In this document: positions 568 through 20,998 of the stretch, in pieces
How the letters are laid out: each line of letters begins with the position of its first letter
Position numbering within the stretch: the first letter of the stretch is position 1
Assembly (NCBI GenBank): GCA_963663805.2
Contig: CAXXMR010000027.1
Location: 19,971 to 83,970, forward strand
Length of the DNA: 64,000 nt
Direction of reading: 5' to 3'
Source of the DNA: Sedimentisphaerales bacterium
GTDB lineage: Bacteria; Planctomycetota; Phycisphaerae; Sedimentisphaerales; SM23-30
Made by a program: the position numbers and the translations under genes
The notes under the pieces: generated by a model
What the model was told of the DNA's origin: nothing
Database searches by the model: none
What the model saw: the letters and a program-made list of their open reading frames with translations, nothing else

Positions 568-3051
568 TTACGTTGTAATTTCTGTAACAAGTCCGATTTG
601 CTGAGCAATCGGTGTATATAAATCAACTTTAGTCGAAGGAGTACTGATTGTTATTATCAGTGAATACCTACATTTCTTCTCAGCAAAACCAAGATGTTTT
701 CGCTCTCTCCACCATCCGGTCACAGGAAAGACGGCAACTTGGCCGCATTCTGCTAATTCTACGGCAGAGGTAGTCCACCAATCACAGTGAACAGAGCCTT
801 TTGTTCTTAAGCGAGAACCGATAGACCAGCTAATTGGATCTGTTGTAGACGGACGTTCTTCTTTCTCATCCCATTCGTGACTACTGATTCTCTGCTTGAA
901 CACACTTTCTTTTTCAACCGGACCTTTAAGCGCAAAACGCAAGCCATGTGAAGCGTATCGGAATTTAGTCCCCCAACCTCGACCGGCTGGACTTGGCTCA
1001 ACAAAATACGAAAGAGTAATTTTTACAGTCACATCTTGATCACCTAAACCGTCCAATGCTTGTTTTGGCCACGGCAGTGAATGCAGAACAAAATGATTGG
1101 TTTTCGCATCTTTTCCATCCATCATGAAGGGCTGTATAGTGCCCTGATGGATAAGAGATACATTATTTTGAATGGTGTGTCTCGCTTTTTCTAAGTTCGG
1201 AACACCATACCCAAAACAACGAAGCCTTCGGTGTTTATCTACTTCTCGTTCGCCAGGAATTTGTTGCCTCATAGCATCTGTCCACTCTGCCGAATGAACC
1301 ATCAATGCCCGAATTGTTTCTGGCCAAAAACTTGGGTAGTCTGCCATTAGAATTGCCGCATAACGTGCAGCCTGAGCCGTTGCAGCACTTGTATCGCTTG
1401 TCCATGATAACAAGTGACCAGTTCGATCAAGGGTAGTTGTCAAAAGAGCAAGATCATCGCACCCATCAACTTGCCCGGAAGGTGAACTTACATAATTTCC
1501 ACCTTCCATCACAATATCAGGTTTGATTGGCCATATGTGATTATTCCACGAGCATGAAGTTCGGCTTGTTGGACACAAACCGCCCCTTGGCGCCAAAGCC
1601 TGATAACCATCGAACTCTCTTGATCGAATTTGAATCCTATCTGTAAAAGCTCCTACTGTCAGAGCATTCCAACTTTGAGCAGGGTCTTCAATGTTTTTTG
1701 CGAGATTGCTTTCTAAATACCTGTAGTTTGTGTCAGTTTGTGTATCTCTTATGTTTCCGGCAGAAATCACATATAGCCTTTGGTCGCCATCAGATTTTCC
1801 TGAAGAATGCTGGTCTACAGCCCCTGACCATGATGATGGCCTACCATGGTCGCGTCCTTCATCGCTCGAAGTAATCGGAAGACAGGCAACTCTACGTCGG
1901 TCCGGTTTTTGACTCTCTGCTTTTTCTAAACTTTTCTGAGTAACATAGCCCCAAGTGTCCTCACTATGAGGATGGTTTGTATGAAGCATCCGAACTGATT
2001 CTAAGTGGTGCGAAAGTTGTAATTGATGGTTATTGGCCAATAATTCAGGGAGCTTATCTCCATACAAAACAAGCCCCGCCATTTCAGTGCCGTGTGATTG
2101 AATGTGATCTACAACTGGCCATTGAGGGTCATATGTTTGTGCATCATCATCAGATATTAAAGGTCGTATTAGAGGATGCTCAGTATGTACTCCATAATCA
2201 AGCATGCATACAGAAGGGGCATTTGGACTAGGCAAGATCAAACGACTCGCTAAATCGTCAACATACATTTTTTGATCTCGAGGCGGCAGTTGAAGAAATT
2301 CCGTTGGAACTTCTTTTGCTTTTCGAAATTCTGCAATTCTGTCGAGAAGAGGTATAAATATCTGTGTCCAGTCTTGTGTTGAACCATGGGCTAGAAAAAC
2401 TAATCTTTCAGGAAAGCTTATTGTATGCTGACTTATTTGCAAATTTGAACCTGCCGTTAATGCAACAAATTCTGAAAAAACATCATCCGAAATTTCTGTG
2501 CTGGAAACTCGAATCCATACTTCCCACCATATACTTTCGTTATTTGTTCTCGGAAATAGATTATCATCATCAGTCCAAAAAGAACGTAATACAGGGTATC
2601 GAATGCGCGAAATGCCAGCCACAAGATCTTCGTTTTTAGGACGTTGCTTGCCTCGACTGTTGTTTTCAGTTTCGTATCGCTCAATCTTTCGAATGAAATT
2701 TTGCAGTTTTCCTTCAGGGACATGTATTGTGGCATGAATTTGATTGCCAATTGTTTTAACGGTTAATACTTCAATGGGTGGTTTAAGTTTAAAATCTTGA
2801 AGGCTTTCAATTTTTAGTCCATAATCCTGCTCTCCGACAATTTCTAAGCAAATATCATGAATGATATGTCCTGTTCGCTCTGCTTCTTGATTAGCTTGTC
2901 CAGTTGCTTGATCTATTTCTTTCAGCAATTTTCTTGCATGAACCCTCCTGTCTCTTGGTGGCACCTCAAATTGCCCTCCACCTATTTGTGTAGATGTGTA
3001 ATCATGTGGTTGGCCAGGATCATCTACGATAATATGTTTACGTTGTAGCAT
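568..3051 (-). CDS. ietS: S8 subtilase-family serine protease, 827 aa (IetS-like defence protease)
   Basis: The Asp/His/Ser triad motifs appear in subtilase order: MLDYGV, SHGTEMAG, SDTSAATAQAARYAA. A strong RBS (AGGGAGGAG) lies 20 bp after the upstream AAA+ gene. The pairing with an AAA+ ATPase matches the published IetAS architecture. Confidence 0.7.
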   Translation of the reverse strand: MLQRKHIIVDDPGQPHDYTSTQIGGGQFEVPPRDRRVHARKLLKEIDQATGQANQEAERTGHIIHDICLEIVGEQDYGLKIESLQDFKLKPPIEVLTVKTIGNQIHATIHVPEGKLQNFIRKIERYETENNSRGKQRPKNEDLVAGISRIRYPVLRSFWTDDDNLFPRTNNESIWWEVWIRVSSTEISDDVFSEFVALTAGSNLQISQHTISFPERLVFLAHGSTQDWTQIFIPLLDRIAEFRKAKEVPTEFLQLPPRDQKMYVDDLASRLILPSPNAPSVCMLDYGVHTEHPLIRPLISDDDAQTYDPQWPVVDHIQSHGTEMAGLVLYGDKLPELLANNHQLQLSHHLESVRMLHTNHPHSEDTWGYVTQKSLEKAESQKPDRRRVACLPITSSDEGRDHGRPSSWSGAVDQHSSGKSDGDQRLYVISAGNIRDTQTDTNYRYLESNLAKNIEDPAQSWNALTVGAFTDRIQIRSREFDGYQALAPRGGLCPTSRTSCSWNNHIWPIKPDIVMEGGNYVSSPSGQVDGCDDLALLTTTLDRTGHLLSWTSDTSAATAQAARYAAILMADYPSFWPETIRALMVHSAEWTDAMRQQIPGEREVDKHRRLRCFGYGVPNLEKARHTIQNNVSLIHQGTIQPFMMDGKDAKTNHFVLHSLPWPKQALDGLGDQDVTVKITLSYFVEPSPAGRGWGTKFRYASHGLRFALKGPVEKESVFKQRISSHEWDEKEERPSTTDPISWSIGSRLRTKGSVHCDWWTTSAVELAECGQVAVFPVTGWWRERKHLGFAEKKCRYSLIITISTPSTKVDLYTPIAQQIGLVTEITT

Positions 3052-3071
3052 TAGGCTCCTCCCTAAATATG

Positions 3072-4049
3072 TTATTCATATCGTTGACGTAGTACTATTG
3101 CCTGTTTTAATTCGTCGGTTCTTATTTTTTTCCTGTCATCAAGCACGGCTTGTTTAGCCGCATCTTCACAGGCTTTTACAATTTCTGCGTGGGGCATATT
3201 TTCTGCTGCTTGAATTATGGATTTCCAACCGATTCTCTCCAAAACAAAATTGCTAAGGCGGTTTTCAATTAAATTTCGAACCATAGAAGGCTGAGGTATA
3301 TTATACCTTAATGTATCGTCAAATCGCCTAAAAAGAGCATTATCTAAAAAAGTTTCAAGATTGCTTGCTGCAAGAATGATGCTATTTGAACGATCTTCTT
3401 CCAGAAACACCAGAAACGAATTCAAGACTCGTCTAATTTCGCCAACATCCTGTCCCATGCTGCGTTGGGCACCTATAGCATCGAATTCATCAAAGAAATA
3501 AACACCCCGCGTTTGCTTCATAGCTTCGAATATATGTCTTAACTTTACTGCTGTTTCACCCATATATTTTGTTATTAAGATATGAAACTGAACAGTTAAC
3601 AATGGCAAGCCAAGTTCACCGGCCAATGCTGCTGCTGTCATCGATTTTCCACAGCCAGAGGGACCTACCAACAAAATTTTACGTCGTGGGAATAGTCCAT
3701 GTGAAAACAAACGGTCGGATTGCCTGTACTCATAAATGACTCTTCCAAGTCTTTCTTCAAGGTCTGTATCTAATACCATATCTGAAAGTCTTGTTTTGGG
3801 GAAAGTTGCCGAGAAAAGCCCGCTAAGGGTACCGGTCGGTTGAACTATAGGAATAGAGCTTATATTTGATGATTTTTCTTTTTGGTTGTTTCTTGCATCT
3901 TCAATCAGTTTACGAAGGTCTTCGGCTAATTTTGATTTTCCGGATCTTGCAGCTTGGGCAGCAATTTGGGAAGCAACTGACAAGAACCTTTCAGGATTAT
4001 GTTCAGTATAGCTCTCTATCAATGCTTTCAGTTGCTGCGCTGTTGCCAT
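3072..4049 (-). CDS. ietA: AAA+ ATPase, 325 aa (IetA-like)
   Basis: Walker A is LLVGPSGCGKS and Walker B is VYFFDEFD. Sensor-1 is ILAASN and the RRFD arginine region is present. The gene sits directly upstream of, and is co-oriented with, the S8 protease gene. Confidence 0.75.
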   Translation of the reverse strand: MATAQQLKALIESYTEHNPERFLSVASQIAAQAARSGKSKLAEDLRKLIEDARNNQKEKSSNISSIPIVQPTGTLSGLFSATFPKTRLSDMVLDTDLEERLGRVIYEYRQSDRLFSHGLFPRRKILLVGPSGCGKSMTAAALAGELGLPLLTVQFHILITKYMGETAVKLRHIFEAMKQTRGVYFFDEFDAIGAQRSMGQDVGEIRRVLNSFLVFLEEDRSNSIILAASNLETFLDNALFRRFDDTLRYNIPQPSMVRNLIENRLSNFVLERIGWKSIIQAAENMPHAEIVKACEDAAKQAVLDDRKKIRTDELKQAIVLRQRYE

Positions 4050-4091: not shown

Positions 4092-4295
4092 TTACATGTG
4101 TTTGGTAGCCATTGGGTTAGCAACTTTCAGCAAAAAATCCTGTAAGTCACTTTTTCTGAACATACGATATTCATTGGCTGGGTTATGAAAAACGGGGATT
4201 TTCCCATCACTTGCCCAAGATCTGATTGTGTTTGGAGAAACACCGAGTATTTTGGCAGCTTCACTTGTTAGCACATAGTTATTTAATTTTTCCAT
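4092..4295 (-). CDS. small MerR/excisionase-type helix-turn-helix protein
   Basis: LTSEAAKILGVSPNTIRSWASDGKIPVFHNPANEYRMFRKSDLQDFL is a MerR/Xis-like HTH. The start is taken at MEKLNNY; the ORF is open to 4364. It lies 42 bp upstream of the AAA+ gene on the same strand. Confidence 0.6.
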   Translation of the reverse strand: MEKLNNYVLTSEAAKILGVSPNTIRSWASDGKIPVFHNPANEYRMFRKSDLQDFLLKVANPMATKHM

Positions 4296-4388
4296 AAGGC
4301 GTCCAGAGAAAATCAATTGCATCGAAACACTAACAAAGTATAACAAACCCTGCAAATCATGCAACTGCTTTTTTTGGGGTACTTCTAC

Positions 4389-4409: not shown

Positions 4410-4625
4410 ATGGGTCTCAAAGGTGGATTATAACCCAGATAATTTCAGCCGGGATTTAAGAAATGTAAATCGGAAAGCAAGATTAAAATGGGCCTGTCTG
4501 GATTACAGGCATACTTTCGGCAGCCTTCACCTGTGGCAGTTTCCCTGTAAAGATAAAACAACCACCCGTCCGGGCCACGTTCCGCTAAAGCGGCTTTCGC
4601 TGTCCGTCCGGGTGGTTGTAGCGTG
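4410..4625 (+). pseudogene. integrase remnant (internal fragment plus 3-prime flank) with a hairpin
   Basis: 4413-4513 aligns with 170-283 of the left integrase (YNPDNFSRDLRNVNRKARLKWACLDYRHTFGS). It then jumps at a shared GGCAGCC to the equivalent of 407-510, including the hairpin. The N-terminal three quarters of the gene are absent. Confidence 0.8.
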
Positions 4626-7473
4626 TTCAGAAAAAAACGGGCAACAACTTGTCTGGTTGCTACCCGTTCAGTTAATCACACCAACTCATATTTGCTATGA
4701 GGCTGTTTTACTTACAGAAGATAACTCGGATTTCCATTCTGTCAGGAGTTCATCGAGCCAGTCGTAAAGCATTTCTAAGGATTTCTTATACTGGTCTTCG
4801 GTAACCTCTTTCTGGAAGTCGGGGTTGGTTAGCCAATCGTTTTCTATGATTTCGATTATATCTTCGACCATTAACATAGTCTCGTAAGTGGTGTATTCCC
4901 GTTCGGGTTGATTCTTTTGCCATTTGGCCTGGCGGTTGGATTCGATTTGTTCGTCGGTCAGGATGGTTGCTTCGGGGATTGACGCGGTGCGCATCATGGC
5001 GACGGCGGTAGAGTCGGAATCATACCAACAGGCTTGCCAGAGCCAATAACCGAAAGTTTCGGCGTTGGTGGAATCTACGAAAATCATTAAATCATCGAGG
5101 TCGATATATTGGTTGTTGTCGAGGTCACAACGAGAATCCCAATTATCGTTGGGGGTGTTGGGGTCTCCGGTATAAGTGGGGTCGTAGTTGCTCCAGGCTT
5201 TCTCGAACAAGGCAAACTCCTTGAGGTTTACCACGCCATCGGCGTTATAGTCCAGAGTGCAACTTATGCCGGAATCGCAGGAATAATATTCATCGGCTCC
5301 CATATCTACATAAGTACCATTGATACGGTCTTCGTTGTCGATGTCGGTTTCGCCGGTTATTACGTTGGTATTATTGCCGGCGTCGATACAGAGCGAATTA
5401 CTGGAAAGGTGGAAGTTGCCAAGGGTTTCATCGGCATAGGCGAAGCAAGGGTCGTCAGCGATATTATAGTCATTGTTGGGAATAGTAACATTTTCTATAC
5501 AGCTATCAGTGGCAGTAATAGAAGCAGGAAGCTGGGTGCCACTGCTATTATTACCCCAGAGAATATTGTTGACTGTGTAAAGATATGGCAAACCAGCTTG
5601 ATTGGTATAAATACCCTGATTGTCATTATAGACAATGGTGTTATTGCGAATCATTGAAGATGATGAGCAGGAGCTAATAAAAATACCATATCCGGCATTA
5701 TGGTGTATCCAGCAATTTTCCAGCAAAAGCATTTCCGCATCAACATAAATACCGTACAGGTCATTATGTGCGATAATACAATGATCTACGGTCAGGGTAT
5801 TGTTGTTTCCGGTTTTGATACCATATCGACCGTTATCAGTAATACGGCAATTTCTGATAGTAACATCGCACGAAGCAGCGATACTGACAGCATCATAAGA
5901 AGCGTTAATCAAACTAAAACCATCAATAATGATATTCTGGGCATCAGCAGCGATACTTATGATATTACCAAATTGATTTGCTCCGCTTAGATAAGTGCGA
6001 TAATGAGCGGGGTGGCGTTCCGACAGCGTGGTTTCATTACCGAGAAAACCACCGTAAAGCGATACGCCGGAAGGAATGGCAAAAGTGCTGTTTAGATAGT
6101 CAGGGGTATAGGTACCGGAGGCAATCCAGATTTCATTGCCGCAACCATTGGCGGCACGACTAAGAGCGCTATGGAGAGAATTATAGGCATTGGCCCAACT
6201 GGTGCCGGTATTATATCCATCCGCAGAGTTATCAACGTAAATAACGTCGCCGCCAAAACAGCCAACCGGGGTTTCGAGGGATTCTCGACGATAGACCAGA
6301 TCGGTTTCGATTATACAGATATTAGCGATGGTGGTAAGCGGTTCGGTCGATTCATTGATGATAGTATTCAGGGTGATGGCAGAGCAGGGATCGGTATCTG
6401 CCAGTGTGCCAATATTCCATACCCAGGCGTAATATTCCTCAAGGAAGTTACTATATTGCGGTGTAGAAGAATCGTAATCGGTTTTGGTGCTGAGATAGTC
6501 AGTCAGTTTGGTGCTGTTGTGGTTATTACCGGCTGGACCATAAGTAAGGGTGTATTGCAAAACATCGTTGTAACCGGGGTAATTATTAGGGTCATTACGA
6601 TTAACATTGTCGGCCTTGTTGAGGTATATTTCCATATCCTCCGGGGCCGAGGCACAAATCATTTCGCGGGGCGTACTTGAGGAAGTTGTGTCGCCGGTTC
6701 CAAAATCACCGTTGTTATTAGTTCCCCAGGCGTAGATCATGCCGTGGCCGTCAATGGCGAGATGGTGAGTGTAGCCATCGTCAATGGCGTTGATATTTTC
6801 CAGATAGCCGGAGCGGCTGAATTGTTCACCATCCGAAACCAGTTGAGGGTTATTGCCGGACCACTGCCAGACAAAACCAAAACTGTCCAGAGCAAGGAAG
6901 TGACTGTTGCCCGCACCGATGGCAATAATATCTTCGAGATAGGTTGTCTCCATATCTCCACCGGGAACTTTTGTCGGTGCGGAACCGGGGGACCACTGGT
7001 AAACGTGTCCGTCCCCGTCGAGAGCCAGCGAATTGTTACAGGAGGCGATTTCGACAATGTTTTCCAGATAGCCCGACGGGGTTTCCATGTCGCCGTCAGT
7101 TACCCGATAGGCAAAAGGATTGCCGCTGCCCCATTCCCAGACGTTGCCGTTTTCGTCCAGTGCGAGGGAATGAGCAACTCCGGCGTCAACTTCGATGATG
7201 TCGTAACCGGTATCATAGCCAAGATATAATATGCCAAGGTTCGGGTCGTTGGCGGTTACGACTTTATGGGGGACATCCCGGTAATCAGGTGTACTGAAAG
7301 TACCAATACCCAACTGTCCACTATTGTTGTTGCCCCACGCATATACATAACTATCACTTGACGCCGCCAGCGAATGCGTGCCGCTGCGACCGGCAGAGAT
7401 ACAGGTTATGTCTTCAAGATGACCACTGACGCTGCCCTGTTGGCCATCGTGAACAAAAATAGGAGATAAAATG

Positions 7474-8999
7474 GACTCTGTAGCATCTTTACCGGCAACA
7501 TAGCATTCCAGTCCTTTCTTCATGAAGTGTTGTTGTAGTTCGTAAACGGCCTTGGGACTGCTCGTCACGCTGCATATCAATAGCCACCCGCTGGCTGATA
7601 TTGGTTTGAGTTCGCACTCGATAGACACTCTTCTGCATTTTTCGATGGCGGCGATAGCCCCGTTCAACCGCGTTGGACGTTGACGGCAGTTGTGAATCAT
7701 CAAGGAAGGTCAACGCCTTTTCGATATTGGGGGTGAACAATTTCTTAAGAGTCTGTCGCAAGGTTTTGAATCGCCCAATTCGCCGGCGTAACACAGCCAA
7801 CTTTTCCAATGCCGTTTCCGTTCGACAACGACGGTCAAAAAGACGATAAACCTGATCCATGATCGAGCGTAAATTTCTCAGGTTTGGCAAGCCTCTGGTT
7901 ATATGCAAAAACTTCTTCTTATCCTTCGAACTCAATGAATGTTGTACAAATAAATATCTGTGCTCAAACAGATCGGCAATTTTCTTTTCCTGTTTCTTCT
8001 TGCGTGATGCCGCTTTCTTCGCGGAAGAAGACGATGGACGGCCACGTTTCAGCTTGGGCAACTTTGCCTTGAGCTCTCGTCGTACTTTCGTAACAGCTTT
8101 GAGTATTTCTCTGTTGATCTCCTTGAGGACATGAAATTCGCACACCTGATGAGCAGCGTCAGGAAATATCAGCGCCAATGGCTCCGGATATAAAGGCGAG
8201 CCGTCGGTCGTAACACCCCGTAATGTCAGCGTTCTTTGTACCAGTTCGGTCCGAAACCGAAAGGAAAAGTTTGTTATATCTTCATGAGTGGGATTATGGT
8301 CAAGAACCTCGTAGATGAGCCGTTTGAAGGTGTGGTTATCCACTATGGATAAGACGCAGAATGGCCCATCATATAATTCGTCCGCTGCAATATAGCCGGA
8401 GAAATCAGCCAGAACACCATCAAGGTACTCAGTTGTAATTCGTTGCTCAGCTTTTTTTCCCCGTCGCCTCAACCCAGTTTTGAATTGTAGCCCAAGGGAC
8501 AAAAACTCTGTGGTCTCGCCACAAGTGCCATGATGCCGGGCGGTACGGCAGGCCGTCCTCCACAACCAAACGCACGGCCAGGTGAACAACCCGACGGGTA
8601 TAGTGACAGCCGGGGTCCGCAAGATCAGTGAGGTCGGCATTGAAGTATCGTTTGCATTTTGAACAACGATGCTGTGAATAGCTGACCCAAATCTCGATGG
8701 GACGGTTGGCAGCCAGGTCTCCGAGGTCATGCAGTTTTCGCCTGAAGACTTTGTCTCGATACGACGAGTGGCCGCAATGGGGGCAAGGACGCTTTTTGTA
8801 GGTGCGTGAACGCCGTTTGATTTTTGCTTTCGGTAAATCTTCAACACCAGTAATACCTTCGGTTATATCGGATACGTATTCGCCTGGCCCAGCCATAATC
8901 GTCTCTCCTGGAAAATTCCACTGGTCTGTTCTTCCAGGAGTTTTATCGGCTAATTTGCGAAAATCTCATTAAAAATGCCGGTATCTATGCTACAGTCTC
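7474..8999 (-). mobile_element. ISL3-family insertion sequence, complete copy (1526 bp)
   Basis: Imperfect terminal inverted repeats of about 23 bp: GACTCTGTAGCATCTTTACCGGC versus the reverse complement of GCCGGTATCTATGCTACAGTCTC. An 8-bp direct target duplication ATAAAATG lies at 7466-7473 and 9000-9007. Confidence 0.85.
7489..8896 (-). CDS. ISL3-type transposase in two frames that meet at an A7 run
   Basis: The N-terminal frame (8447-8896) has a zinc finger (CPHCGHSS…CSKCKRYF) and an HTH. The C-terminal frame has the DDE region (…AADELYDG…VCEFHVLKEINREILK). The frames switch at T7 on the plus strand, 8452-8458. An A6 run would give one continuous ORF. Confidence 0.75.
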
Positions 9000-9430
9000 A
9001 TAAAATGTTATTATTATAAGAACCATTGCCTATTTGACCGTAATTGTCTCCGCCCCATGCGTAAATATAACCATCTTCATCAAAAGCAAGTGAATGATAC
9101 CAGCCAGCATCTACGGCTATAATGTTTTCGAGAAAGCCTGAAGATGTATTCATTTCGCCATCATGAACAGAAACTAGGATCGTTGAACTACCGTCATTAC
9201 CATTTCCTAACTGTCCGAAACTATCGGAACCACAAGCCCAAACCGTTTTGTCTTCCATAAGGGTTAATGTGTGATACTCTCCACCTGAAATAGCGGAGGC
9301 TTTTAGGCATGTATCTTCAGCGCTGAGATTATATGAAATCCCAAATACAAAAAGTACTATTGACATTCTGAGTGTGCGCACCATCTCTGTATCTCCTTTC
9401 AAAGAGGTGAAATGTAAGTAAAAGGATTAA

Positions 9431-10832: not shown

Positions 10833-12023
10833 TTAGGAAATCCTATAACTTTTTACCCAAATTTGTACAGTGCCTTTTAGGTCAGACTGGGATTTAAGGA
10901 TGTTCAATATGCCGGAGTCGGTAAAAGAGCGGGTGGCTTTTTTGACGCTGCCCAGCAGATAAACGCCACCGGTTTTAATATATGCGGTGGTAGTGAAATC
11001 CTGCGAATTGGTGATAGGGGCCGAATTTTCGACATAACCGACCACTGACGAAATAGTGATACTAACACCCAGCTTACAGGTATCAATAGTTGATTCACGG
11101 ACGGAACAACTAAAATCCAGCCCGGTTTGAATATATTCAAAACCTGAGGTTGAGACGGTGCCATTATCTGAAACTACCTTTTTAGGGACCGGGACACGCT
11201 CACCAGAGGAAAACTGAGCATTGCCGCCATCCATCAGAACAAACATAGGCCGGGCAATCATGTTAATATTGGCTTTTTCTCGTTCTGCCTTTAGGATAGC
11301 ATTTAATATGCCGTTGGCGGCTGCGTATGAATTGCTTAGTTTGGTGCTTTCGGCCAGATTGAGGGCCAGTTCACTATCCAGCGTGAAATCAACCCCAAAA
11401 GTCTCTGAGAGTTCGTCCCGTAGGTCCACAATGTACATCTGGACCACCCAGCTATTAGATGGGGCCGAGTCTATACCGTCGAGCATTTCCGAGACACGCC
11501 GGAGAACTTCGACGGTATCACCAATTACCACCAAACCGTCATTATAAGCAACTGCCCGGCCATGCTGAGAGAGCAGCGACGTAATGGCCTGCTGGAGATC
11601 GTCGGCCCGCATACGCTTTACCACTCGAACCAGTACCCCTCTGTCCTCTGGCTGTAATGTACCCAGAAAATACAAATTGCCGGTTTTCGTGACCTGTACG
11701 CTCAACCGCCGGGCGACCACGCCGAGTATATCAGATACCGTCTGGTCCTGTACTTCGACGCTTACCGGCTTTTCGTCCAGATCACTTTCACATACCACAC
11801 TGACCCCGGATTCATTACTGAGCCAGCGCAGGAACATTTTTAAGGATATATCCTGACAGGACAGGGTTAGCAGCGTTTCTTTATTTCTGCTGTCAGATTC
11901 AGTCTCGGAGGTTTGCTGCAAGGCTTTATAATACTGCTGAAATTCTACTTTGGTTTCGAGTTTTGGTAGTTTGGAACAACCGCAAACCCAAACAGAAAAT
12001 ATAACGATCATCAATTTACGCAT
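10833..12023 (-). CDS. secretin (pIV-like) lipoprotein
   Basis: Lipobox VWVCGCS. The C-terminal secretin core reads MIARPMFVLMDGGNAQFSSGERVPVP…GFEYIQTGLDF…GGVYLLGS. Confidence 0.75.
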   Translation of the reverse strand: MRKLMIVIFSVWVCGCSKLPKLETKVEFQQYYKALQQTSETESDSRNKETLLTLSCQDISLKMFLRWLSNESGVSVVCESDLDEKPVSVEVQDQTVSDILGVVARRLSVQVTKTGNLYFLGTLQPEDRGVLVRVVKRMRADDLQQAITSLLSQHGRAVAYNDGLVVIGDTVEVLRRVSEMLDGIDSAPSNSWVVQMYIVDLRDELSETFGVDFTLDSELALNLAESTKLSNSYAAANGILNAILKAEREKANINMIARPMFVLMDGGNAQFSSGERVPVPKKVVSDNGTVSTSGFEYIQTGLDFSCSVRESTIDTCKLGVSITISSVVGYVENSAPITNSQDFTTTAYIKTGGVYLLGSVKKATRSFTDSGILNILKSQSDLKGTVQIWVKSYRIS

Positions 12024-12688
12024 AGTAATTTAACTCCTAACAATACAAAGAAGTGAGCCGGATAAAACCAGCGCCAAAGCCAATTGGGAATCTGTAATTT
12101 AAAATTCTTGGGGCAAAGATAGATAACCGGCAAGGCCAGTATAGCGAAAATCTGGACCGGATTATTTGTAATAGAGGAATACAGCAAAGTAAGGGCAATA
12201 TAAAATATTATCCCTTTTACTTTGTGAGTCTCTAAAAGTCTGAATACAAACAACAGTAACAGGCCGTATATGCTGTATTCAACCAAAGCGGTACATAATC
12301 CCAGAAATACCGCAATAGCTTTATGGCCGCTCTGCCAAAGCTGATAAACCAGAATGAAGATTGCAAAGGTAAATACAATATTGAATTTGCACGAGACAAA
12401 CAAAGCGAAACCATATTGAGCCAGTGCCGCTATAACTGCCAGACGCAGGAAGTACCGGAATTTATTGTCTGTCCAGTCTATCCCGGTTGCCATCAGGTAG
12501 GCATAAATGGGAAAAGCTATCCTGCCGACCATTCGCAAGGCTAATACTTGCGGAAAGAATATCATACCGATATGGTCTAAAACCATCGTAATAATGGCAA
12601 TGCACTTGAGATATTCCCGCCGATTGTCAATTAGTTTTCCATTCGTAGTATAGTTCCATCGGACAATATTATCATTCGTTTGCGCCAT
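12011..12688 (-). CDS. traX: TraX-family membrane acyltransferase
   Basis: Polytopic membrane protein with TraX signature blocks: LKCIAIITMVLDHIG, GRIAFPIYAY, NIVFTFAI and the C-terminal FYPAHFFVLLG. These compare with F-plasmid TraX LKLLALVLMVADH, GRGAFPLFA and FYACHLAVLG. Confidence 0.75.
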   Translation of the reverse strand: MAQTNDNIVRWNYTTNGKLIDNRREYLKCIAIITMVLDHIGMIFFPQVLALRMVGRIAFPIYAYLMATGIDWTDNKFRYFLRLAVIAALAQYGFALFVSCKFNIVFTFAIFILVYQLWQSGHKAIAVFLGLCTALVEYSIYGLLLLFVFRLLETHKVKGIIFYIALTLLYSSITNNPVQIFAILALPVIYLCPKNFKLQIPNWLWRWFYPAHFFVLLGVKLLCVN

Positions 12689-13881
12689 ATTATTTCCTCA
12701 ACTTTCTTGCCCTGATATATGCCGGAATCTATTATTTCCCCTATTTGCAAATCCAAACCATTTTTCAGTAAAACACTGTCCCTTGTCATAAGGGCTATGG
12801 CAGATTCGGAAATAAGTTTTTCCTGCAAGGTTTGTTTTTCCTGATTGGCCTTTTCTAGTTCCTGCTGAATTTGCAAAAGTTCATTGGCGGGAATAACCGG
12901 CTGGGCAGTATTAACAGCAGGAGCCGTTTTAACGTTTTCAACTTTCTTAATCGCTGTTTGTTTCTTGGCAAGATAGCTGAGCTTTTCCAGAAAAGTTCTG
13001 AATAATATTTTGCTGCCGCCGAACAACACTATCCAGCAGAACAAAGCGACAATTAACGCCCTTGAAGCCAGAGCGAGAGGGTGAGTCTTGATAAACCACC
13101 AGAAAACACCTATACGGCCATGCTTTTGAAATTCATGTTGGGCCGCCTTGCCAGCCTTACCGCCGGTATGCGGGGCGACAAAGGAGTCATAGAACTGGAA
13201 ATAATACGGGTCGAGCGTGAAAGTCTCCCGGTGTGATACTTTCCACTTGCCGTCAATGGAGCGTTTTTCAATCTGATGTATCTTTTTTTCATACACTCCG
13301 GTTAATGCTGCCTGTAATTCGTACCAGTGCGCCATCTGTATTTTGAAGAACGGGTCACGGTTGGTTTCGCCATTGACAAGGCTGATTAAAACTGAGGCTT
13401 CCCATTTAATTTCATCGGCCAGCTTATTAGGTGATTGGGTCAAAAATTCAACCGTTGCCCCTCTATGCCGGATTTCACCCAACCACTTGCCCCATTTTTG
13501 CCGTTGATGTTTGGGAGTGGATACGCCACAAAAATTATGTATTTCATCTATGGCGATATGAGCGTTATTTATATCAATATCCTGAAAATAACTCCACGGT
13601 CCCTCCGCTAAATCTGTTTGCCGACGATCATAGGTCAGCATCCATTTATCAAGCTCGGCTTTCGGGATAATATGTATTCTTTCCAGAATCTTTTCTTTTG
13701 GGATATTATGTTTTTTGCTGACCACTTCGGCCATCTTGTCAGCAAAGGCCGGATAGTTAGTGTAAATATGGCCGGTTTCTTTCGGCAGAAATTCATCGAC
13801 CATAAACCTTGAACATCGGCGATAGGTCTTGCCGGAACCCGCCGGGCCGGTTGTCAGATATACTGTACTTCTTTTTGCCAT
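12631..13881 (-). CDS. Zot / pI-like morphogenesis ATPase
   Basis: N-terminal Walker A LTTGPAGSGKT. A single central TM helix (LIVALFCWIVLFGGSKILF) is followed by a coiled C-terminal domain. This is the typical inovirus pI topology. Confidence 0.8.
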   Translation of the reverse strand: MAKRSTVYLTTGPAGSGKTYRRCSRFMVDEFLPKETGHIYTNYPAFADKMAEVVSKKHNIPKEKILERIHIIPKAELDKWMLTYDRRQTDLAEGPWSYFQDIDINNAHIAIDEIHNFCGVSTPKHQRQKWGKWLGEIRHRGATVEFLTQSPNKLADEIKWEASVLISLVNGETNRDPFFKIQMAHWYELQAALTGVYEKKIHQIEKRSIDGKWKVSHRETFTLDPYYFQFYDSFVAPHTGGKAGKAAQHEFQKHGRIGVFWWFIKTHPLALASRALIVALFCWIVLFGGSKILFRTFLEKLSYLAKKQTAIKKVENVKTAPAVNTAQPVIPANELLQIQQELEKANQEKQTLQEKLISESAIALMTRDSVLLKNGLDLQIGEIIDSGIYQGKKVEEIIWRKRMIILSDGTILRMEN

Positions 13882-13883
13882 TT

Positions 13884-14204
13884 TTACCCCACAGTTGGAA
13901 TTAATTTCAATACGAATTTCACGGTAACAAATACCGCAACAAAAGTGTAATACACTGCTAATAGGGTAACACCGTAATCAAGAGGAACCCATGAATTGGC
14001 AACCTCAATCCAGACTTTCATTGGCTCAAGATTGGCCTGCCAGTCAGCCGGGACCATTTCCAGCAGGAAACCCAGCCCGGTATCAACCAGAGTCTTTATG
14101 GAGTCACTAAGCCAGTTCCAGAAGGCTACTAGAGCATTTATAATGGCCGATTCCCACCAGCTAGGCTGTTCCTCGCTGGCAAGTATATAGAGAAAATTGA
14201 ACAT
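13884..14204 (-). CDS. small membrane protein, pVI-like by position
   Basis: 106 aa with a C-terminal hydrophobic helix (LLAVYYTFVAVFVTVKFVL). It lies between the adsorption-protein genes and the pI gene. Confidence 0.45.
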   Translation of the reverse strand: MFNFLYILASEEQPSWWESAIINALVAFWNWLSDSIKTLVDTGLGFLLEMVPADWQANLEPMKVWIEVANSWVPLDYGVTLLAVYYTFVAVFVTVKFVLKLIPTVG

Positions 14205-14216
14205 GATTATGCCTTT

Positions 14217-14639
14217 CTAATATTGCCGTAATACCAGCCAGATATTTCTGATGAGCCAATAGGTCATGAGCGCAATAAACAACATGCGTATCCATTTACG
14301 GAGCTGGTCAACTGCCGCCCCCATTGTTGTTGATGTATCAGGCACGAGATTAATTTTGTATTCCTGAACACCAGCACCGGGAAAGGGTATACGTAGGGTA
14401 ACGGTATAATCACGCTGGTTATCAGGCCGGAGGGATTCCCAGTTGCCCCGGATTTTATCGAAGCGCCCTAACATATCATCATAGTCTTGATCGCCGAAAT
14501 TAAAAGATGAGGGATTAGTGGTATAATTCCCCGGTTCGTACTGGTCGGGGTCTTGATAAGTATCATCATTATCGGGAGCGTCATTATTGGTATCACCTGT
14601 ACCATCGCCGCTATAACCGCCCGTTGAATAAACCATCAT
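14217..14639 (-). CDS. acidic protein with a C-terminal membrane anchor (possible C-terminal module of the adsorption protein)
   Basis: The N-terminus is rich in D, N and G. The C-terminal TM is IRMLFIALMTYWLIRNIWLVL. It overlaps the upstream ORF by 29 nt in the +1 frame. Confidence 0.45.
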   Translation of the reverse strand: MMVYSTGGYSGDGTGDTNNDAPDNDDTYQDPDQYEPGNYTTNPSSFNFGDQDYDDMLGRFDKIRGNWESLRPDNQRDYTVTLRIPFPGAGVQEYKINLVPDTSTTMGAAVDQLRKWIRMLFIALMTYWLIRNIWLVLRQY

Positions 14640-15714
14640 GGTAATCGTCCGGGTCAGTGGGGTCAGTTGCCGGCGGTGCTACCGGGTTGGGATTATCAAC
14701 CGTTGGCGTAGGTGTCGCCGGGTTGGTTTCGCTGTAGTTGCTTTCCCCGTCGCCGTCATAGTCCAGATTGTTCCAGTCCGGGTCATATAATTCTGAGGGG
14801 TAATCATCGGAATTTAGCCAGTTAGAGCCGCTATCCCATTCCAGACCATCGGTATAGCCATCGCCATCCGAATCATTCAGACGCCAGTTACCAACGCCGT
14901 TATCACTAACGGGATTAAACATATTTATTTCAGAATCGAAATCACCCGTTCCCGGTGCTTTTGATGTTGCATCATACGGGTCGAAACCGTGTGTTTCTTC
15001 CCAGCCATCGGAAAAACCATCACCATCAGAATCAATATTCCGTTTATTCTCCCAGTTATCAGCCCATGCTGTGGGGTCTTCCTGCCAGAGTTTATAATCG
15101 AAAGGGTCGTCGTTAGTGCCAGTGGCAGAAGTCCAGTTTGTACCTTCAAAATTTTCACCAAATATCTTTTTGCCAAGTTCATTCATATACTGGTCATGTA
15201 ATGGGCAGTCTTTATCAATCTGGTCCGGTATGCCGTCCAAATCTTCATCTATTAATGGATTGTTAATTTCATTGGCGTAATCATCCAGTAAATCCAAATC
15301 ATCCGGCGGGGAATAGGGGCCGCCATCAACAAACTGGCTGTAATCCGGGGCAGAACTGCAAGCACTGTAATAGCTTTCTGCATTACCGCCCCAGCTACCA
15401 TCTACATACCAGCGACCACCACCAGAACTATCCCACTGAAAACATTTGTAGCCTGAATATGAATGCCATGTACCGGAATAATAGTACATTGAACCTGTCC
15501 CGCAATACCTTCTGGTGCCATCTGATGAAGTATAAACCGTCGGCATTAGAAACGTATAGCCAGGTTGACTGCCGGTAAACATGCCTATCCCTTCCCCCGC
15601 GCAAATATCAACCGGGGAAGGTGTACTGTTATCAACGGCAAAGGTCGGCAAAGCCGTCAATAGTGATATTACCAGAGTTTTCTTGAGTCTTTTGCTAACA
15701 GGATTAAACGCCAT
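14611..15714 (-). CDS. secreted adsorption-protein candidate (pIII-like) with thrombospondin-type-3-like calcium-binding repeats
   Basis: Signal peptide MAFNPVSKRLKKTLVISLLTALPTFA. Repeated motifs DSDGDGFSDGWE, DSDGDGYTDGLE, DYDGDGESNYSE and DEDLDGIPDQID. It is the largest virion-type ORF and sits in the gIII position. Confidence 0.55.
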   Translation of the reverse strand: MAFNPVSKRLKKTLVISLLTALPTFAVDNSTPSPVDICAGEGIGMFTGSQPGYTFLMPTVYTSSDGTRRYCGTGSMYYYSGTWHSYSGYKCFQWDSSGGGRWYVDGSWGGNAESYYSACSSAPDYSQFVDGGPYSPPDDLDLLDDYANEINNPLIDEDLDGIPDQIDKDCPLHDQYMNELGKKIFGENFEGTNWTSATGTNDDPFDYKLWQEDPTAWADNWENKRNIDSDGDGFSDGWEETHGFDPYDATSKAPGTGDFDSEINMFNPVSDNGVGNWRLNDSDGDGYTDGLEWDSGSNWLNSDDYPSELYDPDWNNLDYDGDGESNYSETNPATPTPTVDNPNPVAPPATDPTDPDDYHDGLFNGRL

Positions 15715-15890
15715 GATACAGCACCCCAGATAATAGTTGCGGTTATACACAATACCTTTAACATGAATTTGGATTCATAAATGTCGTTCTGTATCGTCTG
15801 CCATTGATTAGGGTCAATAACCACCGTAGAGGCAAGGCAGCTTGAGGACAGAAAGAGCAATATCAATATGAATTTCATTTTATTCCCCAT
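15669..15890 (-). CDS. small membrane protein (minor coat candidate)
   Basis: Signal-like N-terminus MKFILILLFLSSSCLA plus a second hydrophobic helix. It lies within the coat gene block. Confidence 0.4.
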   Translation of the reverse strand: MGNKMKFILILLFLSSSCLASTVVIDPNQWQTIQNDIYESKFMLKVLCITATIIWGAVSWRLILLAKDSRKLW

Positions 15891-15899
15891 AAAAAAAGG

Positions 15900-16043
15900 C
15901 TAAGTGGAGCGTTTGCCCCACTTTAGCCCGACTCGGATAATGGTAAATGCAACAGAACCGCCGATAAGAATAAGCAGCCACGGCCCGATTAAACTTACTA
16001 CCGCAACCAGAAAACCACCTATATCATTAAGCTCAAATTCCAT
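15900..16043 (-). CDS. 47-aa Pf3-type coat-like protein (below the ORF-track size cut-off)
   Basis: My own translation is MEFELNDIGGFLVAVVSLIGPWLLILIGGSVAFTIIRVGLKWGKRST. It has an acidic N-terminus, one TM helix and a basic tail. Confidence 0.45.
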   Translation of the reverse strand: MEFELNDIGGFLVAVVSLIGPWLLILIGGSVAFTIIRVGLKWGKRST

Positions 16044-16071: not shown

Positions 16072-16299
16072 TTAACCAATCTTGTTGCCCCATCGCAGGG
16101 CACGTCTTACCACCAGAAAAGCGAAGTAACCACCCACAGCAACCGCAGCAACAGCGCCGAGGGCAGTAATACCGGCGGTGATATAACCGCCTACATCAAT
16201 TCCGGTATCGGGGATGGTGACTCCACTGGCAAAAACACGGGAAGCACCGGCACCGACCAAGACAGCGCCCCCAAGGGCTAAATTCCTGACCTTTTTCAT
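16072..16299 (-). CDS. major coat protein candidate (g8p-like)
   Basis: MKKVRNLALGGAVLVGAGASRVFA | SGVTIPDTGIDVGGYITAGITALGAVAAVAVGGYFAFLVVRRALRWGNKIG. It has a signal peptide with an AxA-type cleavage site, an acidic mature N-terminus, a Gly/Ala-rich TM and a basic C-terminus. Confidence 0.7.
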   Translation of the reverse strand: MKKVRNLALGGAVLVGAGASRVFASGVTIPDTGIDVGGYITAGITALGAVAAVAVGGYFAFLVVRRALRWGNKIG

Positions 16300-16503: not shown

Positions 16504-17466
16504 CTAAATTCCATATTGTTCACCGCTTTCGTCAAAATAACTCTCATAGTTACTTACCGGGCAGGTTCGGTAGCGTTCCTCATCGAGTGTTTCTTCGAGA
16601 ATTGCCCGCACCCAGTCAGGCATAAAATCAGGTTTTCTCTTATTTATCAAGTGAAGTGCGGCGGCGTCCGCCGCCGCCAACCCTGCAAAGCAGCACAAAT
16701 GGTCACGGTCAACATCAAGATGCATCCAGCCTTTCTCCGAACCAATGACATTAACATTATTTTCCATGCAGGCTTTTAATAAAAAACCGATATGAACATT
16801 AACGGTGAAAAAACTTGGGTCAGTAACACCTTCCCGGCATAAGGTTTTATTTCGATATTCCTCCAGACGAACAGCAATAGGGATATAACAGCCAGATTTT
16901 CCCCAAGGGTCGGGGATTTTCTTGTCGTACTTTTCCTTTTCGTTTTCTTCCTCCCAGAAGCCGGGACTGACGGCAACAATTTTTACCGTCTTGGGTTTTT
17001 CCGCCAGAATCCACGCCGGGACTTTTCCATCTTTGGCTACGTATTTAGTTACGTAACCGGCAATAGAGTCTTTCCAGCGGTTGACCCAGACGAATCCATG
17101 CCCCCAGAGTGCCTGTAGATCACTCTGAGGGATGAACCCGGAATAATCAATGATAAGATGAAAATGAACCCAGCCGCCTTCCTGAAATTCTAATTTCCGC
17201 ATCCATTTACCGGTTAGCGATTCTCCTAGATACCGGGATAGACGCCTGATGAATAACGGGACGTGCTGTTGTTCTTTCATCTGGTAATAAAGTTCCCTTG
17301 GCGATTCGTAATCGTCATGTCTGTAAGTTAAAGTAATGAACAACCCACGACGGCCACCCATACGGTTTTTAATTCTTTCCGCGAGGTTAAACGAAAGAAA
17401 CGGGACGCTTAGAGGGTCAAACCAACTTTTCAGACTGGGAACTTTTACCGCTATCATGATTATCAA
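16504..17466 (-). CDS. rolling-circle replication initiator (HUH superfamily, two-tyrosine type)
   Basis: HUH motif WVHFHLIIDY. Catalytic motif GYVTKYVAKDGK (Y-x-x-K-Y, as in phiX174 gpA-type Reps). Confidence 0.75.
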   Translation of the reverse strand: MIIMIAVKVPSLKSWFDPLSVPFLSFNLAERIKNRMGGRRGLFITLTYRHDDYESPRELYYQMKEQQHVPLFIRRLSRYLGESLTGKWMRKLEFQEGGWVHFHLIIDYSGFIPQSDLQALWGHGFVWVNRWKDSIAGYVTKYVAKDGKVPAWILAEKPKTVKIVAVSPGFWEEENEKEKYDKKIPDPWGKSGCYIPIAVRLEEYRNKTLCREGVTDPSFFTVNVHIGFLLKACMENNVNVIGSEKGWMHLDVDRDHLCCFAGLAAADAAALHLINKRKPDFMPDWVRAILEETLDEERYRTCPVSNYESYFDESGEQYGI

Positions 17467-19739: not shown

Positions 19740-19828
19740 GTGCGCCAAAATCAGGGTATTGTACCCTAAAGTGTACCCTGTGAGGCCGGAGGACTTGCCA
19801 AATATGGAAAACTTTTTTGGAGAAAGTC

Positions 19829-20998
19829 ATGGCAAGTTTTTTAAAGAAACGAGGTAAAGTTTATTATGCTCAGTATTATATCGGAACCAAGCAAAAACGG
19901 GTGAGTCTGGAAACTATGTCTTACCAAGTAGCAAAAGAAAAAATTCGGGATATTGAATCGGCTTTGTCGATGGGGTCGGATTCTCCGCTACCTTCCAAAA
20001 CTCCCCTAGAAAAAATTCTACAGAAATATGTCGTGCATATCCGCACGGTCAAGACTGCTAAGAGTGCCCAGACTGATGTTTACTATTTACGTCAGATGTT
20101 CGGGCCTATCTGTACTGGGTTGCAGGTGACTATCCGGAAGGTATCTGCTAAAGCCCTCAAAAGGCCGCCCAAGCCGGGGCAGGACCGGAGATTTAAAGCA
20201 TCGGTGATCGAGGTAGGATATTTTGAGCAAATCACCACAGAGGCAATATCTAGCTTTATATCGGCAAAAGTGCGTAGCACGGGGATAGCACCCAAGACAG
20301 CTAATCGATATCGGGAGATAATGTGCAGGCTGTTTAACTGGGCCATGGCTGAGGGTGGAGTGAAAATGCCTAACGATAAGAACCCAGCCGCTAAGGTGGG
20401 AAGGTACAAAGAATCTGCCCCTAAAATACGGTTTTTAACCTTACCGCAGATTGATGAGCAGCTAAATGCCCTTAGCGATTGCCCGCAAATTAAGATAATG
20501 GTGGCAATGTACATCTACGCAGGGTTAAGGCGGGAAGAATTGCTATGGCTCAGGCAAGAGGATATAAACCTAAAGGCAGGATATAACGGCATGATTCGGA
20601 TACAGGCCAAGACCGTTAATGACGAAAGCTGTGAGCCAAAAACAAAGGTAAATCGTGCAGTGCCAATAAGTTCTAGCTTGCGAAGTGTTTTAGAATATTA
20701 TCGTGTCCGTCCTTCGTTTGGAGATTGGTATTTTCCCAGCCCACAGGGGCACAGATACGACCCGGATAACTTCTCAAGCGACCTTAGAGCAGCTAATCAT
20801 AAAGTGGGCTTAAAATGGACCTGTCTGGATTTTCGGCATACTTTTGGAAGTCAGCTTGCAATGAAAGGGGAAAGTTTGTATAAGATATCTACTTTATTGG
20901 GTAATTCGCCGGAAATTTGTAAAAGGCATTACGCAGCTTTGTTGCCTGAAAGTTTGTTTAATACCGTTGATTTCGCAAGTAAAACCAGTGTTAACTAA
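19829..20998 (+). CDS. tyrosine recombinase / phage integrase, full length
   Basis: ATG at 19829 is preceded by GGAG. The N-terminal SAM-like domain and the C-terminal catalytic box LDFRHTFGSQLAMKGESLYKISTLLGNSPEICKRHYA are present. It lies 130 bp downstream of the tRNA fragment on the same strand. Confidence 0.85.
   Translation: MASFLKKRGKVYYAQYYIGTKQKRVSLETMSYQVAKEKIRDIESALSMGSDSPLPSKTPLEKILQKYVVHIRTVKTAKSAQTDVYYLRQMFGPICTGLQVTIRKVSAKALKRPPKPGQDRRFKASVIEVGYFEQITTEAISSFISAKVRSTGIAPKTANRYREIMCRLFNWAMAEGGVKMPNDKNPAAKVGRYKESAPKIRFLTLPQIDEQLNALSDCPQIKIMVAMYIYAGLRREELLWLRQEDINLKAGYNGMIRIQAKTVNDESCEPKTKVNRAVPISSSLRSVLEYYRVRPSFGDWYFPSPQGHRYDPDNFSSDLRAANHKVGLKWTCLDFRHTFGSQLAMKGESLYKISTLLGNSPEICKRHYAALLPESLFNTVDFASKTSVN

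Follow-up and report, generated by a model that had tools for sequence, protein, structure and literature searches.

The window analysed here, a stretch of 64,000 nucleotides (nt) from a Sedimentisphaerales bacterium, contains an inovirus prophage with the minus-strand gene block typical of such phages, and within this block lies a gene of the TraX family, wedged between gene I for the assembly ATPase pI and gene IV for the secretin pIV. We give even chances to the reading that its product is an inner-membrane acyltransferase, a fixed accessory member of the pI-TraX-pIV module, that most likely N-acetylates the coat protein of the phage. The window holds a single TraX gene and a single inovirus element of this kind, and the argument turns on the following features:

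12011 to 12688, minus strand: traX-like gene with ATG start, 225 amino acids (aa), encoding a polytopic membrane protein of the TraX family and putative acetyl- or acyltransferase (from the list of open reading frames (ORFs) and the Pfam TraX match)
12631 to 12688, minus strand: pI/traX overlap of 58 nt, encoding 18 residues that extend the protein N-terminally of the TraX domain (ORF coordinates and alignment to the TraX hidden Markov model (HMM))
12011 to 12023, minus strand: traX/secretin overlap of 13 nt, joining the 3' end of traX with the secretin start (ORF coordinates and reading of the DNA)
12695 to 12699, minus strand: Shine-Dalgarno-like GAGGA before the traX ATG, with its GAGG core at 12699-12696, 7 nt upstream of the ATG (reading of the DNA)
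12631 to 13881, minus strand: gene I, pI/Zot-type assembly ATPase, 416 aa (Pfam Zot, E 2.4e-11)
10833 to 12023, minus strand: gene IV, phage secretin, 396 aa (Pfam Secretin, E 3.4e-11; partial matches to NCBIfam GspD/PilQ)
16072 to 16299, minus strand: putative precursor of the major coat protein, 75 aa counted from MKKV, with predicted cleavage between VFA and SGVTIPD

An initial annotation of this DNA had named three TraX signature blocks in ORF 12011-12688, and its translation does contain YLKCIAIITMVLDHIGMIFF, VGRIAFPIYAYLMA and WFYPAHFFVLLGVK; the overlaps of 58 and 13 nt given there for pI/traX and traX/secretin also agree with the coordinates. The TraX HMM alignment begins at residue 19, 3 nt before the pI stop codon. 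As neither ATG nor GTG nor TTG occurs between M1 and M35, and a start at M35 would cut off half of the first transmembrane helix (TM1), the ATG at 12688 is the sole sensible start of the gene. At its other end, the secretin ATG at 12023 is preceded by an AGGAG (12038-12034) that lies within the 3' end of traX.

The search against Pfam that had been proposed as a check of the family returned a full-length match to TraX (PF05857; E 3e-28; score 99.7 bits, gathering score 25; positions 2-216 of the 217 in the profile), with no second Pfam family at E <= 10, and the protein also matches PHROG 5529, a 'transfer protein' (E 6.6e-20, positions 5-209 of 213). It does not reach the equivalog cut-offs of NCBIfam TIGR02755 for type-F TraX (42.6 bits against 149.35) and of PRK13706 (27.4 against 419), nor that of NCBIfam NF010454 for TrbP (52.5 bits against 206). 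Judged by these profiles, the window protein is a member of the TraX family and not an orthologue of either plasmid enzyme, F TraX or TrbP. An alignment of the window protein with those of the related prophage locus L112, ORF8 of Xanthomonas phage Xf109, the IMG/VR inovirus L029, IncP TrbP and F TraX, the latter represented by traX of an IncF plasmid, leaves D38, H39, G55, R56, P60, R82, L83, N103, Y138, Y209 and H212 invariant, and most of these residues are also invariant or nearly so across 60 homologues.

An AlphaFold model calculated with a 60-sequence alignment (pLDDT 90.2, pTM 0.86) shows ten helices, about nine of them of membrane-spanning length, and a short N-terminal hairpin that is encoded by the pI overlap. 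Charge counting, the only guide to orientation used, would place the N-terminus inside. Foldseek with this model found nothing similar in the PDB (best E 1.6, TM score 0.2) or in BFVD, with best E values of 1.6-1.8 and TM scores of at most 0.3 over both databases; note that from BFVD no TraX-like viral protein at all was returned, so that this null is suspect. A PDB profile search with TraX likewise gave no match. A relationship to acyltransferase-3/HGSNAT structures is unsupported by the Foldseek and PDB profile searches, nulls that carry little weight.

The closest homologues of the window TraX (53-78% identity) are found on complete or large chromosomes of metagenome-assembled genomes of Sedimentisphaerales (Phycisphaerae, Planctomycetota) and on marine metagenome contigs. 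In all cases the genes are arranged in the order Rep, coat, 47-aa protein, pIII, pVI, Zot, TraX, secretin, with overlaps of 58 or 34 nt between pI and TraX and of 13 nt between TraX and secretin. The overlapping Zot-TraX-secretin succession is shared by 10 related loci representing about 8 distinct prophages, down to identities of 44% in pI and 34% in TraX. The arrangement is seen in L003, L004, L005, L007/L008, L009-L012, L112 and L124. Divergence of TraX proceeds in step with that of pI and pIV, as evidenced by pairwise amino-acid identities of 78, 74, 66, 72, 53 and 34% for TraX against 86, 83, 78, 85, 67 and 44% for pI. In seven comparisons the ratio of nonsynonymous to synonymous substitution rates (dN/dS) of traX ranged from 0.08 to 0.22 and that of the core genes (Rep, coat, pI, pIV) from 0.03 to 0.25, with dS in saturation. 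The genes that follow the secretin vary by element, comprising type I restriction-modification (R-M) systems, a methylase with HATPase_c_3 and Z1/DUF4420/AIPR, or beta-helix proteins, and since this variability starts only downstream of the secretin, TraX resides in the conserved core and not in the cargo zone. The shared order, the kept overlaps and a purifying selection like that on the core genes bear out the earlier proposal that the gene is a genuine part of the operon rather than a later insertion. By these comparisons, traX is functional and old in the planctomycete inovirus lineage.

We further inspected the gene context of nine among 104 homologues, many of them from Planctomycetota, that were retrieved in a search with pI. 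In L112 and L124 (pI 44% identical) Zot, a TraX of 206 aa and the secretin follow each other with overlaps, while in L113, L114, L121, L122 and L125 (pI 31-42% identical), and in L126 as a sixth TraX-less locus, the secretin comes directly after pI. TraX is an accessory gene that is dispensable for this type of phage. In an unrooted pI tree the TraX-carrying and the TraX-less phages fall on opposite sides of one branch with a bootstrap support of 80%, a distribution for which one gain or one loss within the planctomycete phage family would account; the unrooted tree was used, as rooting with the pI of Xf109 was uninformative owing to its long branch. The absence of the gene from close relatives, which the initial annotation had named as evidence that would refute it, is thus found in part only: close relatives carry TraX, and more distant members of the same phage family are without it. 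A single-protein scan of IMG/VR with pI yielded no relative, the corresponding metagenome scan one 32-residue fragment only, and an alignment-based pI scan of IMG/VR 5 loci only. Note that in L126 a gene for a cytoplasmic GNAT protein (Acetyltransf_3, RimJ/RimL-like; 4829-5368, minus strand) is located directly after the secretin gene on the opposite strand; it belongs to another type of N-acetyltransferase and is probably unrelated cargo.

The presence of TraX coincides with a particular type of coat N-terminus. The coat precursor put forward earlier does exist as an ORF at 16072-16299 on the minus strand; up to its cleavage site it reads MKKVRNLALGGAVLVGAGASRVFA, followed by SGVTIPD, and cleavage between VFA and S is predicted by the -3/-1 rule and by conservation in the relatives. 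The precursor has no match in Pfam or PHROG. The predicted mature coat proteins of TraX-carrying phages begin with SGVTIPD (window, L003, L004), SGATIPD (L005), SGASIPD (L009), GVTIPD (L007), TSLPD (L112) and SSSLPD (L124), those of TraX-less phages with EGDPVTLVD (L113), QTGGFSLPD (L114), EVTLPT (L121), QVTIPD (L122) and QSGPTIPD (L125). The first residue is Ser, Gly or Thr in 8/8 of the former and Glu or Gln in 5/5 of the latter (uncorrected Fisher p = 7.8e-4), L126 being outside this comparison with a coat gene cut by the contig end. The remainder of the N-terminal segment varies freely in both groups. This pattern is as expected if TraX acts on the coat N-terminus, and so supports such an action. 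In the proteobacterial phages with TraX, the coat proteins that were identified have S or T in first place and then runs rich in Gly and Ser (SGGGGVD, SGSSSPG, SGGSPG, SDSGGG, TEGGG), and a TG start was also seen; this comparison is anecdotal and lacks an adequate control set, as the rule-based finder for coat proteins and signal peptides missed most proteobacterial coat genes and misplaced several cleavage sites. These starts resemble the acetylated (Ac) N-terminus of F-pilin, Ac-AGSSG.

With family, operon integration, conservation, selection and the association with the type of coat N-terminus established here, the proposed function builds on the TraX of the F plasmid. F TraX is a polytopic inner-membrane protein required for the N-acetylation of F-pilin, which takes place on the Ala residue exposed by leader-peptidase cleavage; it is non-essential, pilus biogenesis proceeding without it (PMC7555446). 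The acetylation of F-pilin follows leader cleavage on the periplasmic face. Both F-pilin and the inovirus major coat protein lose a leader by cleavage, are kept in the inner membrane with a periplasmic new N-terminus and are then polymerised into an extruded filament, and as the two share this life history, the pilin analogy drawn in the initial annotation is sound. The window protein resembles F TraX in its Pfam family, in the invariant polar residues, as a polytopic inner-membrane protein and as a dispensable accessory of filament assembly. It differs in that the two are only 25-26% identical and in that its neighbours are inovirus genes, with no conjugation operon and no TraA or TraQ nearby; the substrate of F TraX starts with Ala-Gly, the one proposed here with Ser-Gly.

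According to our proposal, traX would be part of a distal operon with weak expression and be translated through coupling to gene I, and the ribosome-binding site of gene IV would be supplied by the 3' end of traX. TraX would then N-acetylate the alpha-amino group of the major coat protein, with SGVTIPD as its target, in the inner membrane and shortly before pI/pIV-driven extrusion, and the outcome would be a blocked, uncharged coat N-terminus on the virion surface. The TraX-less relatives appear to reach a like state through their N-terminal Glu or Gln, either by cyclisation of both residue types to pyroglutamate or by charge compensation in the case of Glu, and an acetylated Ser, Gly or Thr would present a blocked, neutral end equal to that of pyroglutamate. 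What we infer is the enzymatic activity itself, the donor of the acetyl group, the role of the coat as substrate and any biological benefit. Coat N-acetylation by TraX is the best-supported hypothesis, with chances that we would place at even or somewhat short of it.

Several points weigh against it. The cleavage sites in the coat comparison are rule-based predictions, and as a single branch of the pI tree (80% bootstrap) separates TraX-carrying from TraX-less phages, the association with the first coat residue may reflect a single historical event and not 13 independent observations. The coat of the TraX-less Stenotrophomonas phage PSH1 is predicted to begin with G or F, outside the rule of Glu or Gln, and that of Pf1, also TraX-less, begins with GVIDTS, so that the rule is not obeyed outside the planctomycete family. 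With traX dispensable in relatives, and F TraX likewise for the pilus, any benefit is subtle. A literature search found no report of a naturally acetylated filamentous-phage coat, nor biochemistry for any phage TraX. Unrelated cargo also occupies the slot after gene I elsewhere, ctxAB after zot being an example, and on this account position alone is no proof of a role in morphogenesis. Finally, substrate specificity is not transferable, for the NCBIfam models of F-type TraX and of TrbP match the window protein with scores short of their cut-offs.

The initial annotation knew of no described coat-modifying acyltransferase in filamentous phages, and taken as a claim of no precedent this did not hold: TraX/TrbP homologues are annotated directly after zot in Cf1c, XacF1, Xf109, Xf409, XaF13 and SMA6, and the family is already catalogued as PHROG 5529 and as inovirus family iPF_00069. 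A tblastn search of phage genomes retrieved TraX homologues in the Xanthomonas phages Xf109 and Xf409, both with strong Pfam TraX matches, and the Xf109 protein as query added XaF13, Cf1c, XacF1, fSU1 and Stenotrophomonas phage SMA6. Their genes are labelled 'TrbP', 'transfer protein' or 'conjugal transfer protein', and phage TraX has been carried under such annotations for decades. In the gene tables inspected for spacing (Xf109, Xf409, Cf1c, SMA6), the zot stop and the TraX start overlap by 1 nt in Cf1c, and they are separated by 1 nt in Xf109 and Xf409 and by 44 nt, as annotated, in SMA6. In XacF1, ORF9 begins on the last base of ORF8 (PMC4076744). For this ORF9, Ahmad et al. (2014) reported the TraX homology and speculated on pilus modification (PMC4076744), and the genome announcement of XaF13 lists a 'TrbP conjugational protein'. 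In the supplement of Roux et al. (2019), iPF_00069 appears with 148 members and the annotation TraX under 'Virion structure - Structural (predicted)', and it goes unmentioned in the main text (PMC6813254). Our literature search found no paper on the function of an inovirus TraX. Phage PSH1 is without the gene, its zot being followed directly by regulatory genes.

A scan of IMG/VR with the TraX alignment returned 79 loci, in 58 of which the Zot stop lies 0-93 nt, mostly 0-8 nt, ahead of the TraX domain (in a sample, Zot was checked by Pfam); these 58 loci form 18 clusters at 80% identity. Four further loci have TraX about 1.3 kb after Zot. In L042 (3562-6651) the order is Zot, secretin, TraX, with an overlap of 4 nt between the latter two, and the group of high-GC IMG/VR inoviruses to which it belongs (also L060, L076 and L101) represents a third wiring of TraX into the assembly module. 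Note also that Xf109 and Cf1c/XacF1 are 61% identical in TraX and only 32.5% in pI, which suggests exchange of TraX between Xanthomonas phage lineages.

The ORFs of the Xanthomonas and Stenotrophomonas phages (Cf1c p5, XacF1 ORF9, Xf109 ORF8, Xf409, XaF13 ORF-8, SMA6 ORF192) are like the window gene in having a full-length Pfam TraX domain, in being immediately downstream of and coupled to zot/pI and in being accessory. They differ from it in sequence, with approximately 26-28% identity overall and 35% over 95 residues, and in grouping with IncP TrbP, whereas the window TraX groups with chromosomal TraX of the Firmicutes type. These phages have no secretin gene and TraX comes last in their operon, while the window TraX stands between pI and pIV, and their hosts are Pseudomonadota rather than Planctomycetota. 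What the window TraX contributes to a known kind of element is a new host phylum and a new order of genes, with TraX placed between pI and pIV; it is not by itself a new kind.

Its origin is probably a recruitment of its own, to judge from the relationships among the sequences. The closest proteins outside the prophage clade are stand-alone chromosomal TraX-family proteins of Firmicutes such as Serpentinicella and Paenibacillus, with 35-39% identity over about 85-90% of the length, against only 22-28% for the proteobacterial phage, IncP and F proteins; unlike the window TraX, these stand-alone genes have neither phage nor pilus or conjugation genes around them. For the proteobacterial phage proteins, TrbP of IncP plasmids is nearest (about 45%). 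This TrbP, of the RP4 type, is a TraX-family membrane protein from a pilus biogenesis operon, 22-24% identical to the window TraX, and is dispensable. In bootstrapped neighbour-joining trees the proteobacterial phage TraX proteins form a clade in 100/100 replicates, the proteobacterial phage/plasmid type separates from the window/Firmicutes type in 90/100, and a clade joining both phage groups to the exclusion of cellular sequences in 1/100. In L029, an IMG/VR inovirus of low GC, zot is followed by a further TraX, which is Serpentinicella-like. A single origin of all phage TraX genes is therefore unlikely on these trees, and as the phage proteins are not one clade, the linkage of TraX with pI probably arose more than once. 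These are distance trees on short, divergent membrane proteins, which leave uncertain how many events there were. That TraX was recruited repeatedly into the pI/pIV module points to a functional link with assembly or, at the least, with this slot of expression.

An alternative is a host-directed function, in which TraX would acylate a host pilus subunit or other receptor, a surface glycan or a lipid, and by such lysogenic conversion bring about superinfection exclusion or altered motility and adhesion. We consider this unlikely. The XacF1 authors speculated that ORF9, with its homology to TraX, is connected with changes in type IV pili and the loss of motility (PMC4076744), the gene is present or absent among relatives as conversion genes are, and the region after the assembly genes does hold variable cargo including defence systems. 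That the nearest non-phage relatives are stand-alone chromosomal genes outside any pilus or phage context moreover suggests that substrates of the family extend beyond conjugative pilin. Oac of Shigella phage Sf6 offers a functional analogue, being an integral-membrane O-acetyltransferase of the acyltransferase-3 type, borne by a temperate phage, that modifies the O-antigen of the host; a sequence or fold relationship to the window TraX was not detected in the searches above. Enzymes of the Oac type are presumed to move acetyl groups from a cytoplasmic donor to a periplasmic acceptor, and they are encoded outside morphogenesis operons. The window traX, however, lies within the conserved core where it overlaps both pI and pIV, not in the cargo zone downstream of the secretin, and it co-diverges with the core genes. 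The N-termini of type IV pilins are poor targets for N-acetylation, as they are made and N-methylated on the cytoplasmic side, PADLOC finds no defence-system match for TraX, and the switch in the coat N-terminus is left unexplained.

The tight coupling of traX to pI and pIV, and not to the coat gene, would also fit a different phage substrate, such as the pIII-like, pVI-like or 47-aa protein, the secretin or pI, or a different chemistry with a longer acyl group or a side chain as target. The N-terminal extension of 18-23 residues that is unique to the window clade, and for which a beta-hairpin is predicted, could dock such a partner, and the score far below the threshold for F-type TraX equivalogs allows for another specificity. 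Positive evidence for any such target is absent, though, the sole experimentally known substrate of a TraX protein is the N-terminus of a leader-cleaved filament subunit, and the comparative signal sits in the N-terminus of the major coat protein; we regard another substrate or chemistry as quite unlikely.

A non-catalytic role as a membrane component of the assembly site or of the virion would be in line with the filing of iPF_00069 (TraX) under virion structure by Roux et al. 2019 (PMC6813254) and with the position next to pI in many lineages, but a polytopic protein of 225 aa with approximately nine helices is unlike any known inovirus structural protein, and assembly in related phages proceeds in its absence. 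The invariance of those charged and polar residues within the membrane that it has in common with the F enzyme argues for catalysis and makes such a role improbable. A passenger without current function, be it a decaying insertion or an annotation artefact, is least credible of all and effectively refuted by the selection analysis: the window prophage does have a frameshifted pIII gene and may be defective, and the GC content of traX is 0.40 against 0.45 for the whole prophage, but the dN/dS values hold at saturated dS over all seven comparisons, the frame is intact in the 10 related loci, all family-invariant residues and the overlaps with both neighbours are kept, and dS > 1 excludes that the relatives are recent copies of a single element.

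Returning to coat acetylation, we tentatively propose, with more doubt than conviction, that TraX is the first known enzyme to covalently modify a filamentous-phage capsid, swappable with an N-terminal Glu or Gln, and that inoviruses of unrelated hosts (Pseudomonadota, Planctomycetota, a low-GC lineage) independently brought different TraX subfamilies into the pI/pIV module for it. On the same uncertain footing, selection would have favoured a virion surface on which the coat N-terminus is blocked or neutral. Filamentous phages, familiar from textbooks and as platforms for display, are assumed to have capsids with no modification beyond leader cleavage. TraX coupled to pI is now on record in 18 IMG/VR sequence clusters, six named phages and a planctomycete lineage, and the switch between Ser, Gly or Thr and Glu or Gln in the coat, which is new here, makes acetylation a concrete prediction. 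If it were true, there would be a direct mechanistic link between the biogenesis of conjugative pili and of inoviruses, a recurrent accessory gene would be explained, and a natural route to N-terminally blocked display scaffolds would be at hand.

The remainder of the prophage in the window comprises the following features:

15900 to 16043, minus strand: hydrophobic small coat-like protein of 47 aa without signal peptide, conserved in relatives
15902 to 15923, minus strand: terminator-like hairpin with a 9-bp stem and a T run, directly after the coat and 47-aa genes and upstream of the pIII-pVI-pI-traX-pIV block
14217 to 15750, minus strand: pIII-like adsorption protein containing bacterial TSP3 repeats, its gene divided into ORFs of 379 aa and 140 aa by a frameshift near 14630
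13884 to 14204, minus strand: pVI-like membrane protein, 106 aa, with position and size kept in all relatives
16504 to 17466, minus strand: rolling-circle replication initiator, gII-like (Pfam REP_ORF2-G2P, E 2.1e-16)
19817 to 20998, plus strand: tyrosine integrase at the regulatory end of the prophage (ORF; Phage_integrase is called at the same position in L004 and L009)

The hairpin at 15902-15923 can be likened to the terminator after gene VIII of the Ff phages and would hold the expression of the pIII-pVI-pI-TraX-pIV block low. It is only suggestive, since the numbers of sites in the promoter and terminator scans were at shuffle background, and for the same reason these scans bear neither way on an internal promoter. 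The pVI-like protein has no family match in Pfam or PHROG. Both halves of the pIII-like gene align to one 499-aa gene of the relative L003 (76% and 80% identity), and in the relatives this is a single gene of 464-499 aa, so that the window copy indicates a defective prophage or an indel in the assembly. Upstream of the main coat gene, L010 has a second, diverged coat-like gene (4853-5149, equivalent to 3871-4149 in L009), which encodes a signal peptide followed by ATLPDTGCD, a transmembrane segment and a longer tail.

Diverged prophage copies (TraX 74-78% identical to that of the window) also occur side by side in single Sedimentisphaerales chromosomes as tandem or neighbouring integrations, with L003 and L004 about 20 kb apart on the same 5.9-Mb contig and L010 and L011 adjacent on OY763926.1. 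Inoviruses of this kind in planctomycetes seem to be vehicles for defence islands: in L003, L004, L005 and L009 defence-type cargo follows directly after gene IV, either type I R-M or a methylase with HATPase_c_3, in one case together with Z1, DUF4420 and AIPR. In the window, two overlapping transposase-like ORFs of 452 and 149 aa (7489-8896, minus strand) are flanked by a fragment with RCC1 repeats (8998-9402) and by an RCC1/beta-helix protein of 1002 aa (4695-7703), which suggests the insertion of an insertion sequence into the cargo downstream of the secretin; at the same place, the relative L006 has an uninterrupted pair of beta-helix proteins of 214 and 1025 aa. Judged by eye, the translated ORF at 4423-4767 (plus strand) is similar to the C-terminal region of the integrase encoded at 19817-20998 (…DNFS.DLR..N.K..LKW.CLD.RHTFGS…); it has the look of a remnant of an integrase, possibly at the boundary of an older element. 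Beyond the cargo side of the prophage, PADLOC identifies an IetA/IetS anti-phage defence pair (568-4049, minus strand), with IetA at 3072-4049 (E 2.9e-70) and IetS at 568-3051 (E 8.9e-31), which adjoins a small helix-turn-helix gene at 4092-4364.

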